Part shown: piece after piece, positions 3,332 to 31,253 of the stretch
Numbering within the stretch: the stretch's first letter is position 1
How the letters are laid out: every line of letters begins with the position of its first letter
Made by a program: the position numbers and the translations under genes
NCBI GenBank assembly: GCA_050015895.1
Contig: JBEKAN010000003.1
Span: 1-37,744 of the forward strand
From: Verrucomicrobiota bacterium
Lineage (GTDB): Bacteria > Verrucomicrobiota > Verrucomicrobiia > Limisphaerales > Palsa-1400
Reading direction: 5' to 3'
Length of the DNA: 37,744 nucleotides
Notes under the pieces: generated by a model
The model's database searches: none
The model's input: the letters and a program-made list of their open reading frames with translations, nothing else
Told to the model about the DNA's origin: nothing

Positions 3332-3419
3332 TTGCCGCAAAAGAACGCAGGGAACGCAAAAGATCAACATCATTTCCCTCTGCGTTCTTTGTGTTCTTTT
3401 GCGGCAATCTTCTTTTTTT
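3332..3419. repeat. Long palindromic element with 9-nt periodic arms, followed by a T-run
   Basis: Arms 3332-3361 (TTGCCGCAAAAGAACGCAGGGAACGCAAAA) and 3378-3407 are reverse complements at 25/30 positions. T-rich tail at 3408-3419. Confidence 0.85.
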
Positions 3420-3457: not shown

Positions 3458-5770
3458 GTGAACGGCAAAAATAACTCCTCAAAGGTCCTGGTCTCCCTGG
3501 CTCTGGCGCTGGGCACGGCCTTTCTCTACGCGCCCGTCCTGGGCTTTGATTTTGTCAACTACGACGACCCGTTGTATGTGATCAACAATTTCCATATCCG
3601 GTCCCTCAACCACCAGTTCCTGGTCTGGTGCTTTCAACCCGGGTACGCCTTCATGTGGCATCCGCTGACGTGGATGTCGCACGCGCTGGATTTTCAGTTC
3701 TACGGGATTCTCCACCCCGGCGGGCACCACGCCACGAGCCTGGCGCTGCACATCCTGAATTCGATTCTGCTTTTCCTGCTTCTGAACCGGATGACCAAGG
3801 CCCTGTGGCGCAGCGCCATCGTGGCGGCGCTCTTCGCCTGGCACCCGCTCCACGTCGAGTCCGTGGCTTGGATTTCCGAGCGCAAGGACGTGTTGAGCGC
3901 CTTCTTTTGGATGCTGACAATCTGGGCCTACATCCGTTACGTGGAGGAAAACACCAAGAAAAACCACGGCTTCCCTCGCGGATCAGCCGGATCATCTTCT
4001 CCCAATCCTAATCCTAATCTTAATCCTAATCTTAATCCTAATCCTAATCCTAATCCTAATCCCTCTTCATCCGTGCCATCCGTGAAATCCGTTCGCACAC
4101 TTGGTGCGCCTCCTGATATTGTGCTGACTGTAAAATCCGGTTCTTCCGCGGCTTTTTACATTCTGGCTCTGCTGTTTTTCGCGCTGGGGTTGATGGCCAA
4201 ACCGATGGTCGTCACGCTGCCGTTCGTTCTGCTGCTGCTGGATTGGTGGCCGTTGCGGCGGATCAATCCCGGTGGGGCGGGACCCTGTCCAGCCCCATTG
4301 AATCCGGAGGAAATAAAGAGTCACGGCTCGACAGAGTCTCGCCCTACCGGGGTTGTTGCAACCGTGCTGCGGTTGTTGGCTGAGAAAATCCCGTTCTTTG
4401 GTTTCTCCGTCATTGCAAGTTTTGTCACGCTTGGGGCCGCCAGCCGGACGATCCTGCCGCTGGCCAGCTTTTCACTCGTCTCGCGTCTCACCACCGCCGT
4501 CGTGATGTACTGGCGCTACATCCAGAAGATGATCTGGCCGCAAAACATGGTAGTTGCCTATCCTTTTGATTACCCCTACTCCGGACAGGAGGTGCTGACG
4601 GCGGGGGTGTTTGTCATCGTAGTTTCCGTAATCGCCATCCGTCTCTGGAAAAAGCGGCCGTTCTGGCTGACGGGGTGGTTTTCGTACCTCGGCATATTGG
4701 TTCCTGTGATCGGCCTGGTGCAGGTGGGGGCGCAGCCGATGGCGGACCGCTACACCTACCTCTCTTCCATCGGGATTTTCCTGATTGTCTGCTGGGAGGG
4801 TTGGGATATTGCCAGGGACTGGCGGCATGGACGGGCGATCGCCGGGGTGGCGGCGGCGGCGGCGCTGTGGGTTTGTTGTCTGTTGAGCGGGCGCCAGCTT
4901 CAGTACTGGAGAAACCCCTACACCCTCCACCAGCACAGCATTGCCGTGATGCCCAACAGTGTGATTGCCCATACCGATTATGCCGCCTTTCTCCGGGACG
5001 ACCTTCACTTGGAGGCGGCCCGCGCGGAATGCGAGAAGGCCATTCATCTTGACCCGAATTTTGCCTTTGCGCACCAGGTCCTGGGCGGGGTTCTTCTCCT
5101 GGAAGGGAAATTGGAACAGGCGGACGTGGAACTGCGGAAAGCACTGAGTCTTGACCCAAGAAGATTGGATGTTCATGCGGACTTGGGGCAGGTGGCGCTG
5201 GCCCGCAATGCACCTGTCGAGGCCGCCGCGCAATATGGCGCCGTGCTGGCGGCCGAGCCATCCAACCCGCAGGCCCGCGTGGGCCTGGGCCAGGCGCTGG
5301 CCATGCAAGGCAGGCTGGATGACGCGCGCGCCCAGCTTGTGGAGGCGTTGCGGCTCACGCCCCAATATCCGGAGGCCCACCATCAATTGGCGGTGGTCCT
5401 TGCCCTGCAGCATCACACCCCGGAGGCGGTGTCGGAATATCGGAAGGCCCTGAAACTGCACCCGGACCGCGCCGACACCTTGAATAATCTGGCGTGGATC
5501 CTGGCCACGGATCCCAGGCCGGAAAATCGCGACGGCGTGGAGGCGGTGAATCTCGCCTTCCGCGCCTGCGTGTTGACCCACGACCAACAGCCGATGATGA
5601 TCGGAACCCTGGCCGCGGCCTACGCCGAGGCCGGGAGTTTTGACGACGCGGTCGCGGCGGCGCAGCGCGCGCATGATCTGGCCGTGGAGCAGGGGAAGCA
5701 GGCGTTGGCGGCCAAAAACCTCGATTTGCTGGCGCTCTACCGCGCCCATCGCGCCTACCATGAGCAATAA
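3458..5770 (+). CDS. TMTC-like membrane glycosyltransferase (GT-C fold, putative protein O-mannosyltransferase) with C-terminal TPRs
   Basis: First-loop NYDD, WHPLHVESVAWISERKDVL, MADRYTY, many TM helices, and TPR repeats ending in LNNLAWILAT. Confidence 0.85.
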   Translation: MNGKNNSSKVLVSLALALGTAFLYAPVLGFDFVNYDDPLYVINNFHIRSLNHQFLVWCFQPGYAFMWHPLTWMSHALDFQFYGILHPGGHHATSLALHILNSILLFLLLNRMTKALWRSAIVAALFAWHPLHVESVAWISERKDVLSAFFWMLTIWAYIRYVEENTKKNHGFPRGSAGSSSPNPNPNLNPNLNPNPNPNPNPSSSVPSVKSVRTLGAPPDIVLTVKSGSSAAFYILALLFFALGLMAKPMVVTLPFVLLLLDWWPLRRINPGGAGPCPAPLNPEEIKSHGSTESRPTGVVATVLRLLAEKIPFFGFSVIASFVTLGAASRTILPLASFSLVSRLTTAVVMYWRYIQKMIWPQNMVVAYPFDYPYSGQEVLTAGVFVIVVSVIAIRLWKKRPFWLTGWFSYLGILVPVIGLVQVGAQPMADRYTYLSSIGIFLIVCWEGWDIARDWRHGRAIAGVAAAAALWVCCLLSGRQLQYWRNPYTLHQHSIAVMPNSVIAHTDYAAFLRDDLHLEAARAECEKAIHLDPNFAFAHQVLGGVLLLEGKLEQADVELRKALSLDPRRLDVHADLGQVALARNAPVEAAAQYGAVLAAEPSNPQARVGLGQALAMQGRLDDARAQLVEALRLTPQYPEAHHQLAVVLALQHHTPEAVSEYRKALKLHPDRADTLNNLAWILATDPRPENRDGVEAVNLAFRACVLTHDQQPMMIGTLAAAYAEAGSFDDAVAAAQRAHDLAVEQGKQALAAKNLDLLALYRAHRAYHEQ
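4004..4063 (+). repeat. In-frame hexamer array (AATCYT) x10 encoding NPNPNLNPNLNPNPNPNPNP
   Basis: Ten consecutive AATCCT/AATCTT units, the last AATCCC. Nested between a degenerate CACGG-type left arm (3963-3993) and (ATCCGTGnn)x3 at 4069-4093. Confidence 0.95.
4271..4348. repeat. In-frame REPIN-like inverted pair of GTAG-type REPs
   Basis: GGTGGGGCGGGACCCTGTCCAGCC (4271-4294) matches the reverse complement of 4325-4348 (GGTAGGGCGAGACTCTGTCGAGCC) at 20/24 positions. Confidence 0.75.
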
Positions 5771-5773
5771 TTC

Positions 5774-5933
5774 TTCTTTTCCTAATCTTAATCCTAATCT
5801 TAATCCTCTCTGCTCCACATGAACCGCCTCTTCGACCATGAAAAGCTGGAAGTTTATCAAGAATCCCTGGCTTTCGTTGCCTGGCTCGAACCGCTGACAC
5901 ATTCGGATTAAGATTAGGATCAGAAGGAAAAGA
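5774..5933. mobile_element. Putative non-autonomous element: inverted (AATCYT)n arrays around a four-helix-bundle gene fragment
   Basis: Left end: TCTTTTCCT plus four AATCYT units (5784-5807). Right end: CGGATT AAGATT AGGATC, then AGGAAAAGA in reverse-complement orientation. Fills the whole spacer between the two TMTC-like genes. Confidence 0.6.
5819..5911 (+). pseudogene. Truncated four-helix-bundle protein (23S rRNA IVS-protein-like) N-terminus
   Basis: Translates MNRLFDHEKLEVYQESLAFVAWLEPLTHSD*. F-x-x-E-K-L-x-V-Y-Q is the characteristic start of this family. The stop falls inside the right-hand repeat array. Too short for the ORF track. Confidence 0.75.
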
Positions 5934-5939
5934 CTTATA

Positions 5940-8159
5940 GTGAACCAAAAAGCTCGCACATGGCTGATTTGTCTGGCGCTGGCGACTGGCACGGCGCTTC
6001 TGTACGCGCCAGTGCTCCATTTCAGTTATGTGGCGCTGGACGACCAACTCTACTTCGACAATCATATTCTTCAGGGCTTCAGTTGGGCGGGACTGCGCTG
6101 GTGCTTCGCAACGACCCTCGGCAGCATGTGGCATCCCTTGACCTGGGTGTCGCACATGCTGGATTTCCAGTTCTTCGGCGCGCTGTTCGGGGGGCATCAT
6201 GCCACGAACGTGGCGCTGCACATTTTGAGCTCGGTAATGCTCTTTCTGCTGCTGCGCCGGATGACGGGGGCGATGTGGCGCAGCGCGATGGTGGCGGCCC
6301 TTTTCGCCTGGCATCCCCTGCATGTGGAGTCCGTCGCGTGGCTGGCGGAGCGCAAGGACGGGTTGAGCGCCTTCTTTTGGATGCTGACAATCTGGGCCTA
6401 CATCCGTTACGTGGAGGAAAACACCAAGAACATCCACGGATTACACCGATCATCTTCTCCTAATCCTAATCCGTCTTCATCCGTGCCATCCGTGAAATCC
6501 GTTCGCACCCTGGGTGCGCCTCCTGATATTGTGCTGGATGTAAAATCCGGTTCTTCCGCCGCTTTTTACATCCTGGCTCTGCTCTTTTTCGCGCTGGGCT
6601 TGATGGCCAAGCCGGTGCTGGTGACGATGCCGTTTGTTCTGCTGCTTTTGGATTGGTGGCCGCTGGGGCGGATGAGGGGAATGCAGAGCGATGAATGGAG
6701 AATGCAGAATGCGAATCGAGGAAGGGAGGGAAGCGATGCGGTTCCGTTTTGGGGGTTGGTGAGGGAGAAGATTCCGTTTTGCTTGCTGTCCATCGTTTTC
6801 TCCGTTCTGACGCTGGCTGCGTCCGCCCGGAACGCGGCGCCCCTGGCCATGCTTCCGCTCACGCTGCGCCTGGGCAATTGCGCGGTCAGCTATTTTCTTT
6901 ATGTGGCAAAGACGGTTTGGCCTGAAAACATGGTGGTGCTGTATCCCTTTGTGCCCCAATGGCCCGCGTGGCGGATCGGGGCGGCCAGCCTGTTTGTCGT
7001 CGTCGTCTCCGCGACGGCCCTGCGCCTGTGGAGGTCCCGGCCTTATTTCCTTCTGGGCTGGCTTTGGTATTTGGGGATTCTCGTCCCGGTCATCGGTTTG
7101 GTGCAAGTGGGCGTTGAACACATGGCAGACCGGTACAGCTATATCCCGTCCATCGGCTTGTTTGTCATATTTTGTTGGGGCGCTTCTGATCTTCTCGGCG
7201 GCTGGCGTCATGGAAAAATGATCTTGGGAGGGTTGGCTTGGGCGGTGCTGCTGGGCTGCGCCCTGGTTGCCGAAAACCAGCTCCAATACTGGAGAAACAG
7301 CGACACGCTTTTCATCCACAATCTGGAGGTGGCCCCGAACAGTTATGTGGCCCACGCCGCTTACGCGGCGTACTTCTATAACAACAGGCAAGTGGAAAAG
7401 GCCGCGGCCGAAAGTCAGAAAAGCATCCTCATCAAACCCGGCTACCCGTTTAGTCATACCGTGCTGGGCGAGTGCCTGTTGCAGCAAGGCAAGCCGGACC
7501 AGGCGGCCGCGCAATTCCAGATCGCACTCCAGGCCCAGCCCGCGGCGGAGGACGCCCGGCTCGGTTATGGGAACGCCCTGCTGGTCCAGAACTTGCCCGC
7601 CCAAGCCGCGCGACAATTCACCACCGTGCTTGCCGCCAACCCGGACAATCCGGAGGCGCATTTCTTGATGGGCCAGGCGTTGCTGAAACAGGGAGACTTG
7701 AGCGGGGCGCGCGCCCAATACAGCAAGGCGATGAGTCTGGTGAAACGCTACTCGGACGCGCAATTCCAACTGGCGGTGGTCCTGGCCAGGCAGGGGAACA
7801 TCCAGGAAGCCGTGAAGAATTATCGCGCGGCCAAGAGCGTGCCGCAGGGCGTGGAGGATTTCCTGGTGTTGAACAATCTGGCGTGGATCCTGGCGGCCAG
7901 TCCCCTTCCCGAATACCGGGACGGCTCGAAGGCGGTCGAACTGGCCACGCGCGCCCGCGACCTGGACCACTCGCGGCATCCGCTGGTCATTGGGACGCTG
8001 GCCGCCGCGTACGCCGAAGCGGGGCGATTTGACGAGGCGGTGGCCGCGGCGCGGCAGGCGCATGATCTGGCGCTGGCGCAGGGGGACCAGACAGTGGCGG
8101 CGCGCAACCTGGCCCTGCTGGAAATCTATCGTTCCCACCACGCCTACCATGAAAGGTGA
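5940..8159 (+). CDS. TMTC-like membrane glycosyltransferase with C-terminal TPRs (paralogue 2)
   Basis: LDD loop, WHPLHVESVAWLAERKD, MADRYSY and TPRs. Collinear with 3458-5770. Confidence 0.85.
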   Translation: MNQKARTWLICLALATGTALLYAPVLHFSYVALDDQLYFDNHILQGFSWAGLRWCFATTLGSMWHPLTWVSHMLDFQFFGALFGGHHATNVALHILSSVMLFLLLRRMTGAMWRSAMVAALFAWHPLHVESVAWLAERKDGLSAFFWMLTIWAYIRYVEENTKNIHGLHRSSSPNPNPSSSVPSVKSVRTLGAPPDIVLDVKSGSSAAFYILALLFFALGLMAKPVLVTMPFVLLLLDWWPLGRMRGMQSDEWRMQNANRGREGSDAVPFWGLVREKIPFCLLSIVFSVLTLAASARNAAPLAMLPLTLRLGNCAVSYFLYVAKTVWPENMVVLYPFVPQWPAWRIGAASLFVVVVSATALRLWRSRPYFLLGWLWYLGILVPVIGLVQVGVEHMADRYSYIPSIGLFVIFCWGASDLLGGWRHGKMILGGLAWAVLLGCALVAENQLQYWRNSDTLFIHNLEVAPNSYVAHAAYAAYFYNNRQVEKAAAESQKSILIKPGYPFSHTVLGECLLQQGKPDQAAAQFQIALQAQPAAEDARLGYGNALLVQNLPAQAARQFTTVLAANPDNPEAHFLMGQALLKQGDLSGARAQYSKAMSLVKRYSDAQFQLAVVLARQGNIQEAVKNYRAAKSVPQGVEDFLVLNNLAWILAASPLPEYRDGSKAVELATRARDLDHSRHPLVIGTLAAAYAEAGRFDEAVAAARQAHDLALAQGDQTVAARNLALLEIYRSHHAYHER
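6679..6713 (+). repeat. In-frame heptamer array (GAATGCA-type) x5
   Basis: gaatgca gagcgat gaatgga gaatgca gaatgcg, in the loop after DWWPL. Confidence 0.7.
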
Positions 8160-8644: not shown

Positions 8645-9265
8645 TCAGCCGGTGTCCTCGCCCAGTTCCACGTTCCAGTAGGCCAGGTCCAGAAAGTGTT
8701 TCCAACTGTCGTGATGGGGCAAACCGAGATTGACCTGGACGAAGGGGCGCCATTTGGGCCGCTTGGGTTTGCGCACCAGGTGCATGCCGGCCTCCTGCGG
8801 CGTCGAGTTGGCCTTTTGCGTGTTGCAGCGGATGCAGGAGCACACGATGTTCTCCCAAGTCGTCGGGCCGCCGCGGTCGCGCGGAATCACGTGGTCCAGG
8901 TTCAAGTCCTTGCGCTCGAACACCTGCCCGCAGTATTGACACGTGTTGCGGTCGCGCTCGAAAATGTTGTGACGGGTGAACTTCACCTCCTTTTTGGGAA
9001 GGCGGTCGAACATGACCAGGAGGATGACACGCGGGACGCGGATCCGAAAGGAGACCGTCGCAATGGTTTCCGCGTGGGGCTTCTGGGCGGATAAATCGCG
9101 CCATTGGCTGAAGCTGAAGGTCTGGAACGCGCCCTCCTCGTCGCTCAGGACCACCTGGGCGTGGCCCTCGAAGAGAAGGGTCAGGGCGCGGCGGGCGGTG
9201 CAGATGTTCACCGCCTGCCAGAGGCGGTTGAGCACCAGGACATGCTGGTTGAGAAACGTACTCAT
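8645..9265 (-). CDS. HNH endonuclease (McrA-like)
   Basis: VLVLN N-terminus; [39 protein letters not shown]. Start at ATG 9265. Confidence 0.92.
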
Positions 9266-9314
9266 AACTTTACGAGCGGGGGAAGAGTAATTAAGATCAG
9301 GATGAAAATCAAGT

Positions 9315-10514
9315 ATGAAGCATGAGTTTGACTCCATTGAATCGGTCGTGGCCGACTTGCGCAAAGGGCGCATGGTGGTGGTGGTGGACGACGCGGACCG
9401 GGAGAATGAGGGCGACCTGATCATGGCCGCCGAGCACGTCACGGCGCCGGCGGTCAATTTCATGGCCAAGCACGGGCGGGGCCTGATTTGTGTCCCCACC
9501 ACCTACGAGCGCCTCAAACAATTGGGGATCGAAGAGATGGTGACGCAGAGCGCGGACAATTTCCGCACGGATTTCCAGGTCAGCGTGGACGCCGCGCGCG
9601 GGGTGACCACCGGCATCAGCGCCGCCGACCGCGCGCAGACGATCAAAGTGATGGCCAGCCCGACGGCGGTGCCGGACGATTTGGCGCAACCCGGCCATGT
9701 GTTTCCTCTGCGGGCCAAACCGGGGGGGGTGCTGCAACGGGCGGGCCACACCGAGGCGACGGTGGATTTGGTCAAGCTGGCGGGGTCGCGGCCCATGGGC
9801 GTGTGCTGCGAGATCATGAGCGAGGACGGCTCCATGGCGCGGCTGCCGGAATTGAAACAATTCGCCCGCGCGCACAAGCTCAAGATTTGCACGGTGGAAG
9901 ACCTGATTCATCACCGCCGCAGCCGGGAGAAACTGGTGGAGCGGGTGGAAGTGGTCAGGTTGCCGACGGCGTACGGGGATTTTGACCTCCACTTGTACCT
10001 CTCCCACACCGACGGCCAGCACCATCTGGCGCTGGTGCGGGGGCGGGTGGCGGGTGGGAAAAATGTGCTGGTGCGCGTCCACAGCGAGTGCCTGACCGGG
10101 GACGTGTTCGGGTCGCGGCGCTGCGATTGCGGGCCGCAACTCCACCAGGCTATGCGGCAGATCGCCGAAGCCGGGCGCGGGGTGGTGGTCTATATGCGCC
10201 AGGAGGGCCGGGGCATCGGGCTGGCGTCCAAGATCAAGGCTTACAAATTGCAGGAGCGCGGCTACGACACGGTCGAGGCGAACCTCAAACTGGGCTATGG
10301 CCAGGACTTGCGCGAATACGGGCTGGGCGCGCAAATCCTGGTGGACCTGGGGTTGAAGACCATTTGTCTGCTGACCAACAACCCCAAGAAAGTCGTCGGC
10401 CTGGAGGGCTACGGGCTGGAGATCGTCCGGCAGCTTCCCATCAAGATCCGGCCCAATCCGCACAACCAAAAATATCTCACCACCAAGCGCGACAAGCTGG
10501 GGCATTTGTTGTAG
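9315..10514 (+). CDS. ribBA: Bifunctional 3,4-dihydroxy-2-butanone-4-phosphate synthase / GTP cyclohydrolase II
   Basis: [10 protein letters not shown] and RAGHTEA (RibB); [21 protein letters not shown] and QEGRGIGL (RibA). Confidence 0.97.
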
Positions 10515-19204: not shown

Positions 19205-19234
19205 AAGATTAAGATTAGGATTGACATTAAGAGG
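19205..19234 (-). repeat. Hexamer array (AATCYT family, reverse orientation)
   Basis: aagatt aagatt aggatt gacatt aagagg, between subunit II and SCO. Confidence 0.8.
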
Positions 19235-30230: not shown

Positions 30231-30272
30231 AGGACTGGGATTAAGATTAGGAGTAAGATTAGGATTAAGAAT
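30231..30272 (-). repeat. Hexamer array (AATCYT family, reverse orientation) x7
   Basis: aggact gggatt aagatt aggagt aagatt aggatt aagaat, ending immediately before ATG 30273. Confidence 0.9.
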
Positions 30273-31253
30273 ATGACCGCCACCATCACCGTTCATTCCA
30301 GCCAGTTCCCGGAAAATGTCCGGCGCGACCTCATCCATTCACTCCACGCGCGGAGTGTCAACCCCAAGTTCCACTACGACACCTACAAGCAATCGCAAAA
30401 GTGGCTGGCCCTGCACGAGGCCCATTCGCCCTCGCGCACGGATCCCGCCTGCGCGGCGATTTACGATCTGGCCTTTGCCGCCACCGCGGAGCGAATTCCC
30501 GCGCCGCGGGTCCGGGTGATTGCGCTGGGCTGCGGCGGGGGGCAGAAAGAGGCGCGGTTGCTGGGCCTGCTGGCGGGGCGGGGAAAGGAGCTTTCGCACA
30601 CGCCCTGCGACGCGAGCTTGGCGCTGCTGCTCACCGCCCGCCAGGCGGTGCGCGAGGCGGCGGCGGGGGATATTCCGAGCTATCCGATCCTCTGCGACTT
30701 GGCGACAGCCGGCGATCTGCCCCTGGTTTTCGGCCCCTCGGCGGACGCGGGCGTGACGCGCTTGATCACCTTTTTCGGCATGATTCCCAATTTTGAGCCG
30801 GCGCTGATTCTGCCGAGTCTGGCGGACCTGACGCGACCGGAGGACTGGCTGCTCTTGAGCGCCAACCTGGCGCCCGGCCCCGACTATGCGGCGGGCATGC
30901 GGCGCATCCTCCCCGGCTACGACAACCCGCCGACCCGCGACTGGCTGACGACCTTCCTGTACGATCTGGGATTCACGCCCGGGGACGGGGACGTCCGCTT
31001 TGGCGTTGAGACTTCGGCGGAGGGGCTGAAGCGGGTGGTGGCGGACTTTTATTTGACAGAGAGTCGCGCGCTGACGGTGGAGGGGGAGCATTTTGAGTTT
31101 CGCGCCGGGGAGAAGATCCGGCTCTTTTTTTCCTATCGCCACACGCCCGACCGAATCCGCGCCCTGCTCAAGCTCCACCAGCTCGAAGTATGCGAGCAAT
31201 GGCTGGCCCCGTCCGGGGAAGAAGGCGTTTTTCTGTGCAGGAGACTTGTCTGA
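30273..31253 (+). CDS. EgtD-like SAM-dependent methyltransferase (Methyltransf_33), divergent
   Basis: PKFHY, LGCGGGQK, FFGMIPNFEP, GYDN and EKIRLFFSYR, collinear with EgtD-family motifs. Confidence 0.75.
   Translation: MTATITVHSSQFPENVRRDLIHSLHARSVNPKFHYDTYKQSQKWLALHEAHSPSRTDPACAAIYDLAFAATAERIPAPRVRVIALGCGGGQKEARLLGLLAGRGKELSHTPCDASLALLLTARQAVREAAAGDIPSYPILCDLATAGDLPLVFGPSADAGVTRLITFFGMIPNFEPALILPSLADLTRPEDWLLLSANLAPGPDYAAGMRRILPGYDNPPTRDWLTTFLYDLGFTPGDGDVRFGVETSAEGLKRVVADFYLTESRALTVEGEHFEFRAGEKIRLFFSYRHTPDRIRALLKLHQLEVCEQWLAPSGEEGVFLCRRLV

Follow-up and report, generated by a model that had tools for sequence, protein, structure and literature searches.

The 169-nt spacer between two tandem TPR-protein genes of a Verrucomicrobiota bacterium is the decayed remnant of a small inserted cassette, in which a four-helix-bundle gene was enclosed by inverted hexamer arrays. 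We favour the reading, with a probability of roughly 0.6, that this spacer preserves, in decayed form, a compact selfish cassette resembling the intervening sequences (IVS) of 23S rRNA that bear an open reading frame (ORF), here situated between protein-coding genes. The four-helix-bundle family, also termed S23p, is widespread and several of its structures have been solved (2GSC, 2RLD). To our knowledge, however, the protein is devoid of known catalytic activity, and we know of a role for the family solely in diversity-generating retroelements. The window, i.e. the whole stretch of 37,744 nucleotides analysed here, corresponds to contig C3 of a genome assembly (G000) that comprises 545 contigs and 4.69 Mb with a G+C content of 61% and is 84% complete.

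Layout of the spacer and its remnant gene

The upstream host gene (3458-5770, forward strand) encodes a membrane protein of 770 aa with C-terminal TPR repeats and terminates with a TAA codon at 5768-5770, followed 169 nt further on by the gene for a paralogue of 739 aa (5940-8159, forward strand), which starts with GTG at 5940. Only TPR families match either protein. The succession of a hexamer array, a 30-codon ORF and an inverted array, which had been noticed in a preliminary description of this DNA, is real and extends from 5775 to 5933. The left (5') arm (5775-5807, forward strand) starts 5 nt past the stop codon of the upstream gene and consists of TCTTTTCCT (5775-5783) followed by AATCTT AATCCT AATCTT AATCCT (5784-5807); it is alignable to the left arms of the full-length elements L008, L009 and L010. 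The remnant ORF (5819-5911, forward strand; MNRLFDHEKLEVYQESLAFVAWLEPLTHSD) comprises 30 codons, the first 26 of which (5819-5896) correspond to the N-terminus of a four-helix-bundle protein, and its last four codons together with the stop codon extend into the right arm. The latter, i.e. the 3' arm GGATTAAGATTAGGATCAGAAGGAAAAGA (5905-5933, forward strand), reads GGATT AAGATT AGGATC followed by AGAAGGAAAAGA and is complementary to the left arm. In agreement with the claim that the two ends are reverse complements, complementarity amounts to 88% over 26 nt and reaches 100% in a core of 16 nt. Moreover, the right arm harbours a Shine-Dalgarno-like AAGGA (5924-5928), located 11 nt ahead of the GTG at 5940.

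The predicted RNA fold of 5765-5945 attains -48.5 kcal/mol (z = -4.0), a stability matched by none of 200 shuffles, and the base of its stem is formed by pairing of 5922-5933 with 5775-5788. Alignment to full-length units reveals that both arms and 26-27 codons have been retained in the window, and that about 310 nt, from codon 27 to the end of the gene, are gone. The spacer had indeed been taken for an internally deleted copy.

Assignment to the four-helix-bundle family

Searches with the 30-aa peptide returned neither a Pfam family (E up to 1) nor an NCBIfam family (E up to 10); the peptide spans 26 of about 106 model positions and is too short for an HMM. The HMM search that the preliminary description had proposed thus gives no direct match, and the link to the family runs via full-length relatives. 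The peptide is identical to the L009 protein of genome G021 in 23 of 26 residues (88%, E = 1e-16), shares 80% identity with three full-length proteins in alignment A1 and also reveals its homology by tblastn (E = 2e-10). Intact ORFs with AATCNT arrays before and ANGATT arrays after the gene occur in G020 (125 aa), G021 (125 aa), G012 (126 aa) and G029 (134 aa), and in all four the ANGATT array starts at or inside the stop codon. The full-length relatives match PF05635 with 64.8-71.4 bits (cut-off 33.8) and TIGR02436 with 56.0-61.1 bits (cut-off 24). Hence, the proposal that the peptide represents a four-helix-bundle N-terminus is borne out by its close match to proteins that pass both models and are accompanied by the same arrays. 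The predicted structure of the L009 protein is a four-helix bundle (pLDDT 91.8), the closest known structures being 2GSC (TM 0.85/0.90) and 2RLD, followed by the Avd chains of a Bordetella phage. With 26 homologous codons left, the window copy is, as judged by its sequence, a gene remnant and not a member protein.

A mere coincidence of a slippage-made repeat with a spurious short ORF, to which the peptide's want of an HMM match of its own might point, has a negligible probability. It is refuted by the full-length homologues with the same arrays, and is further opposed by the z-score of the fold, the complementarity of the arms, the 23/26 identity and the enrichment of bracketed genes described below (33/35 and 57/77).

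Decay series and empty sites

A DNA search with the spacer in 41 genomes, i.e. G000 and 40 relatives, yielded array-only matches in 17 of them as well as longer matches that reach into the gene. A remnant located between the same hexamer arrays, with other deletion end points, retains 10 codons in G003 (L011), and N- plus C-terminal pieces of the gene are left in G019 (L013) and G004 (L014). G000 itself contains two further remnants, namely an N-terminal piece on contig C240 and, on C325, the C-terminal 22 aa adjoining the 3' array; an intact gene of the window's subfamily was not found in this genome (84% complete). Hairpins that bear the same arrays, either without the gene or with a fragment of it, are thus dispersed in G000 and related genomes.

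At the orthologous junction, the two TPR-protein genes are separated by 13, 1, 5 and 21 nt in G001, G002, G003 and G005, respectively, versus 169 nt here, where orthology is likely, not certain, because the flanking genes belong to a tandem paralogue family. All four junctions recovered from the five same-genus genomes are free of both array and element, a contiguous junction not being found in G004. The site is accordingly polymorphic, which answers the preliminary description's suggestion to look for empty sites in relatives. In this lineage, the cassette entered between two TPR-protein genes that stand only 1-21 nt apart in relatives. A second case is provided by the full-length copy of G020, whose site is bare in G007 (about 130 nt versus about 700 nt). 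The flanks of the G020 copy are not adjacent in G015, G018 and G023, and those of the G012 copy lie on separate contigs in G018 and G023. The gene has reached different genomic locations in the company of its arrays; neither a target-site duplication nor exact ends were definable at the empty and filled junctions compared.

Dispersed arrays in the window and its genome

Further occurrences of the hexamer in the window had been named in the preliminary description, and all of them exist, although two are intragenic and not intergenic. An in-frame (AATCYT)9 array (4004-4057, nine units) lies within the upstream host gene and an in-frame array of two units (6461-6472) within the downstream one; such in-frame arrays read NPNPNL... 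in the host proteins. The others are G-rich and on the forward strand. A degenerate array (9289-9312; AAGATC AGGATG AAAATC) stands directly before the ATG at 9315, and a lone array of three units (19205-19222; AAGATT AAGATT AGGATT), at which neither a partner arm nor a gene fragment was found, is situated in a spacer between co-directional genes, as delineated by a crude gene caller of our own. A lone degenerate array (30231-30266), with two perfect units at 30255-30266, occupies a spacer and ends 6 nt before the ATG at 30273.

On the scale of the genome, the hexamer is anything but a chance sequence, as G000 contains 94 hexamer arrays of at least two perfect units. Its non-redundant set of short tandem arrays amounts to 3468, in which AATCCT is the commonest period-6 unit (54 of 362 period-6 arrays, with 105 distinct units), AATAGGG the commonest of period 7 (21) and AATCAGTG the commonest of period 8 (19). 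Each of these three units surrounds a gene of the family or what is left of it: AATCCT the remnant in the window, AATAGGG an intact gene on C14 and AATCAGTG an intact gene on C60. A complementary arm within 200 nt accompanies 14 of 88 hexamer arrays in the polarity of the element and none of the 88 in the opposite polarity; the remaining 74 are devoid of a recognisable partner arm, and most lone arrays show no trace of a gene. In addition, a hairpin unit some 125 nt long, in which the array lies inside an outer inverted repeat, is present 20 times in G000. The same outer repeat bounds the gene-bearing remnant of G019, and a target-site duplication is visible in none of the 20 copies. The view that lone arrays are footprints of the element consequently holds in part: three loci keep gene fragments, partnered arrays exist and the 20 hairpins share an outer repeat with a gene-bearing copy, whereas the majority of lone arrays bear no such trace. 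A scan of G000 for inverted array pairs based on TRF recovered only 20 pairs, many arms being too short or too degenerate for its score threshold.

G001, in which a search for family genes found none, is rich in hexamer arrays, and so is G000 (84% complete), in which an intact cognate gene was not found, so that arrays persist, or spread, without the gene. This bears on an alternative according to which the arrays came first, as slippage-made host hairpins with a regulatory or structural role, and the gene is either a resident regulator or lands in such hairpins; the window would then represent a host hairpin that had earlier received a gene. The ratio of 94 hexamer arrays to no intact cognate gene found in G000 fits this alternative, as does the presence of arrays in G001. 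The same holds for their placement, with 78 of the 94 being intergenic, 12 at contig ends and 4 inside genes, though the genome is 83% coding by the crude codon-usage caller of our own on which this placement relies. Moreover, arrays of this kind are treated as candidate regulator sites in parts of the literature (sections of PMC4679880, bioRxiv 10.1101/2022.06.06.494920 and PMC2700814). It is opposed by the empty orthologous sites, which lack any array, by the remnants, which demonstrate that hairpins can derive from gene-bearing units by deletion, and by the orientation of arrays relative to the next start codon, which is unbiased (41 versus 37). Taking into account also the relation between repeat unit and protein lineage described below, we regard an origin of the system from host arrays as rather unlikely.

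The notion that the arrays are mainly 5'-leader elements was dropped in view of the same absence of an orientation bias. A test for arrays before start codons that used raw ORFs was uninformative, with a background of 1438/3000.

Bracketed genes in related genomes and across phyla

PF05635 matches occur in 31 of the 41 related genomes at about 160 places. Bracketing was scored from the two 220-nt flanks of a gene, as the best inverted repeat that links one flank with the other, and 35 loci were subjected to this procedure, comprising 29 new PF05635 loci, L001 and L002 (L001 listed twice) and four hexamer-type genes. In 33 of the 35 the score exceeded 24, the maximum of 124 controls shifted by 800-1100 nt (mean 17.8); the other two genes are without a clear bracket. 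For the scan beyond these relatives, one genome per species was searched with the seven-protein alignment A3; at least 596 hits were confirmed, from which the best 80 were taken, and three of these 80 were removed for short flanks. The use of this closer alignment and of the best 80 hits biases the resulting 77 loci to one subfamily. Among these best-hit loci, 57 of 77 score at least 30 and 20 are without a clear bracket; 64 exceed 26, the 95th percentile of 227 mismatched left/right pairs, and 35 exceed 40, the maximum of both controls, whose means are 18. The expectation that intact family genes are flanked by inverted arrays is thereby upheld in the related genomes and across phyla alike.

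By their record titles, the loci scoring at least 30 belong to at least ten phylum-level groups. They were found in Acidobacteriota, Planctomycetota, Verrucomicrobiota, Bacteroidota, Clostridia, Cyanobacteria and Chloroflexi, and further in alpha-, beta- and gamma-proteobacteria, Desulfobacteraceae, Collinsella, Fibrobacteres and Patescibacteria. In Fischerella PCC 9431, three of five family genes are bracketed and two are without a clear bracket; three-unit patterns of two of the bracketing units have 111 and 159 matches throughout that genome, and the reversed patterns have none.

The architecture of the bracketed units is rather uniform with respect to arm length and position. Over 87 elements with a score of at least 30, the arms have a median length of 31 nt (IQR 27-35), the left arm stops a median of 40 nt short of the Pfam match and the right arm begins a median of 1 nt past the stop codon. 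The repeat period of the arms is 7 in 19 of 30 loci of the relatives and in 53 of 57 cross-phylum loci (score of at least 30). The G-rich arm lies upstream in 70 of the 87 elements, and the hexamer family of the window has the opposite polarity. Family genes are co-oriented with their upstream neighbour in 26 of 33 cases and with their downstream neighbour in 24 of 32; such rates are about usual for adjacent bacterial genes and were treated as not informative.

The repeat unit itself follows the protein. Where two proteins are at least 70% identical, their arms are alike in 58% of cases (19 pairs); at 50-70% identity the share is 4% (356 pairs), and below that it is zero. One and the same repeat unit also accompanies related proteins that are encoded at unrelated places in separate genera. 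Since the units differ between lineages and are alike only among close proteins, both arms change together and stay complementary. This dependence of the unit on the protein lineage, and its recurrence at unrelated sites in different genera, stand against an origin from pre-existing host arrays. Mismatches between the two arms are concentrated in a single phase of the repeat (0.56 versus 0.42 expected, p = 7e-6, 38 elements), which suggests a repeat unit with a conserved core plus free positions. Of 181 mismatches, 145 also fall on phases at which the units of an arm differ among themselves (73 expected), a comparison that is partly circular, so that only the clustering in a single phase counts. 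A signal of the RNA strand was not detected in the arm mismatches of the 87 elements, with 90 of the G·U type versus 72 of the A·C type (p = 0.18); the arms thus provide no sign of selection for a hairpin in RNA.

The same rule can be set against another explanation, in which a Y1 (RAYT-like) tyrosine transposase acting in trans moves the repeat hairpins and the four-helix-bundle gene is a passenger. A suitable candidate exists in G000, where contig C170 encodes a Y1_Tnp protein (PF01797, 50.8 bits) whose gene lies between inverted AACATTT arrays, AACATTT being the second commonest heptamer array (10 arrays). The unit of these arrays, however, differs from those around four-helix-bundle genes, no Y1 gene was found beside the family loci inspected, and the relation between unit and protein holds in many phyla, in which the presence of Y1 was left unchecked. 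We therefore deem mobilisation by such a transposase improbable.

Comparison with known systems

The closest counterparts of the window cassette are the IVS of the Leptospira, Coxiella and Xanthomonas type. According to PMC4990558, the 23S IVS of Coxiella possesses a terminal stem of 28 bp that RNase III cleaves, a decaying S23p ORF and, ahead of this ORF, heptamer repeats (GACAGAT), the number of which differs between strains; rRNA IVS in general are described there as patchily distributed and suspected of transfer, and the Xanthomonas homologue (2GSC) as a homopentameric toroid. Complementary ends, a stem with the S23p ORF in its loop and decay of the ORF by deletion are common to IVS and the window cassette, and the tandem heptamers ahead of the Coxiella ORF constitute a further likeness. 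On the other hand, the window site is located between protein-coding genes and not in helix 9, 25 or 45 of 23S rRNA, the arms of the window type consist wholly of tandem repeats (hexamers here), and gene-less hairpin derivatives of the window cassette are dispersed in tens of copies.

The REP/RAYT analogy drawn in the preliminary description applies to the genomic signature, since the dispersed units are those found around resident genes. As in REP/RAYT systems (REPIN), a gene lies between inverted short repeats that are also dispersed in the same genome. Beyond this signature the analogy ends: the bracketed genes match only PF05635 and not a Y1 transposase, and the repeats are tandem arrays instead of single palindromes. 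With MITEs, the system shares the occurrence of many short non-coding copies bounded by terminal inverted repeats (20 of about 125 nt in G000) and the existence of internal-deletion derivatives of a gene-bearing parent. In contrast to MITEs, the parent does not encode a transposase, and neither the window junctions nor the 20 hairpins show a target-site duplication.

Avd, the obligate partner of the reverse transcriptase in diversity-generating retroelements, has the same four-helix-bundle fold as the L009 model, which matches the Avd chains 8UBE, 8UB7, 8UB8 and 4DWL with TM values of 0.71-0.75 by query and 0.80-0.83 by target. Part of PMC10053308 equates PF05635 with Avd. Such resemblance would be expected if the cassette were retromobile, i.e. 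if its Avd-like protein cooperated with a reverse transcriptase encoded elsewhere and the end repeats arose from repeated copying or template jumping. A PF00078 reverse transcriptase was nevertheless not found in G000 (84% complete), nor was one adjacent to the family loci inspected, and sequence identity to Avd is 9-10%. Retromobility hence appears very unlikely.

Intergenic heptamer arrays such as the cyanobacterial STRR, the TAACTGA repeats of Beggiatoaceae and the heptanucleotide and octanucleotide sites of Geobacter resemble the arrays described here in being dispersed and in comprising two to six or more units of 6-8 nt. Sections of PMC4679880, PMC2700814, PMC6344855 and bioRxiv 10.1101/2022.06.06.494920 describe them as sometimes paired on opposite strands and their binding partner as unidentified. 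The term 'four helix' is absent from the main-text portions of these four sources, supplements aside; likewise, 'S23' does not occur in those of PMC4679880 and PMC2700814, nor 'intervening sequence' in that of PMC4679880.

Proposed mechanism

An intact unit is composed of an upstream tandem array, a gene for a four-helix-bundle (S23p/Avd-like) protein of about 120 aa and a reverse-complement array that begins at the stop codon. Flanked by complementary arrays, the gene thus lies in the loop that closes a stem some 31 bp long, and the complementary arms would form a long hairpin in a read-through transcript. By analogy with rRNA IVS, RNase III may cut this hairpin, so that the insert would do little harm, a proposition for which we see about even odds. 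Somewhat below that, we rate the idea that the repeats could be cis sites recognised by a ring-shaped pentameric protein. Spread of the cassette via host recombination or hairpin-directed insertion, and not by a transposase of its own, is likewise conceivable at slightly less than even chances. The likeness to the Coxiella rRNA IVS leads us to regard these units as inserts of that type, which would be capable of landing in any transcribed DNA.

A more far-reaching version, which we put forward tentatively and regard as doubtful, holds that pentamers of the four-helix-bundle protein are the sequence-specific partners of tandem heptamer arrays and that both constitute a transposase-free system of the REP/RAYT kind. 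Each protein lineage would then recognise its own unit of 6-8 nt, and the number of units in an arm, roughly 4-5, would correspond to the five subunits that make up the ring, in a manner comparable to the TRAP ring, which reads spaced triplets. The cassette would insert in transcribed DNA including rRNA, seed arrays and decay, and the host would co-opt the leftover hairpins.

With regard to the window, the predicted stem of the remnant would begin 5 nt past the upstream stop codon and cover the downstream AAGGA. Since the base of the stem is near the stop codon and AAGGA is sequestered, a terminating ribosome could open the stem and, as we infer from the modelled fold, the remnant hairpin might in this way couple translation of the two host genes.

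Significance and environmental occurrence

According to PMC6344855, no periodic repeat is more abundant in prokaryotic intergenic DNA than the tandem heptamer arrays, for whose function that survey sees 'no clear clue'. The present analysis joins two old puzzles, the role of the S23p/four-helix-bundle protein and the function of tandem heptamer arrays, and both questions become testable if gene and arrays form one system. In that case, rRNA intervening sequences would represent a single target among those used by a much wider class of inserts. A link between the family and tandem-repeat arrays in general was not found in a literature search that left supplements, subscription journals and family descriptions aside, and an earlier statement of the general gene-array rule may exist. 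The sole precedent found, in the accessible portions of PMC4990558, is the Coxiella S23p ORF with its heptamer repeats, i.e. one rRNA element. Taken alone, the window is a modest result, a dead copy that is now a hairpin between two co-transcribed genes.

The window stretch also occurs in peat and wetland metagenomes. Neither a full-length nor an empty variant of the window site was readable from assembled contigs of public runs, and these contigs likewise gave no sign of RNA processing. In one metatranscriptome run, contigs cover only part of the upstream gene and the array, and contig X3 of an independent peat metagenome covers 5300-6222 without any difference.

Tandem-array load of the genome

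The genome from which the window derives (G000) is unusually dense in short tandem arrays, with 3468 non-redundant arrays that amount to 87.8 kb in total across the whole genome, the most frequent periods being 9, 12 and 10. Several 10-mer units are abundant, for instance AATCGTGCAT (26 arrays), AAAGGTGGAT (17) and AAACCCAGTC (16), and no gene associated with abundant 10-mers of this kind was found in this genome. Among the heptamer units AACATTT is the second most frequent (10 arrays), and it is also found in inverted arrays on both sides of a Y1_Tnp gene (IS200-like and RAYT-like, 365 aa; contig C170:1248-2455), within GGTCACATC... ends.

Hairpins

A family of hairpins of about 125 nt occupies 20 sites in G000, for example C77:9436-9540 and C135:1030-1150. 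In each, an outer inverted repeat, GCATTTCACTTTTATGGGT ... ACCCAAAAACGTGGAATGC, surrounds an (AATCCT)n array that is separated by a short loop from a degenerate array in reverse orientation. Seven of the copies directly precede a conserved leader that resembles a promoter and belongs to a family of paralogous genes. A further hairpin is present in the window upstream of the first TPR-protein gene (3332-3407), where GAACGCA-type repeats make up the arms, which are 27 nt each and 89% complementary.

Further family loci and remnants

Genes of the four-helix-bundle family (PF05635/TIGR02436) often occur in twos or threes within a few kilobases, and the type of array differs from one gene to the next, as in related genomes at G021:C106:36763-42379 and on G027:C16, G028:C17, G031:C11 and G031:C54; these clusters look like small cassette islands. 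In a Planctomycetota MAG (JACRIP010000419.1, locus L065), one family gene has on each side an array of about 198 nt, consisting of about 28 heptamers of the GTGGACG type; these arms are six times as long as usual. A longer family member in G000 (locus L003, C8:4858-5070), with an open frame of 218 aa, has 10-mer arrays of the GGACAGGCAC type in front of it, and its coding region contains an inverted pair of similar repeats. In addition, a remnant on the reverse strand of contig C240 (about 1640-1730) retains the left array together with the beginning of the four-helix-bundle reading frame. The next gene downstream appears to take its start codon and signal peptide (MRNWKLSG...) from within this remnant, in a different frame.

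Arrays within and around host genes

Both TPR-protein paralogues of the window share an in-frame insert at the same position (4004-4100 and 6461-6510), in which a hexamer array of nine units in the former copy versus two in the latter is followed by ATCCGTGMM 9-mer repeats, the encoded peptide being SSSPNPNP...SSSVPSVKSVRT. Owing to its period of 6, the hexamer array can persist within the reading frame. On contig C143 of G000 (8879-9832), a fragment of a RecG-like helicase gene has an in-frame AATTCCC array close to its start and an AATAGGG array after its stop codon; the two arrays are an inverted pair enclosing part of a host gene instead of a family gene.
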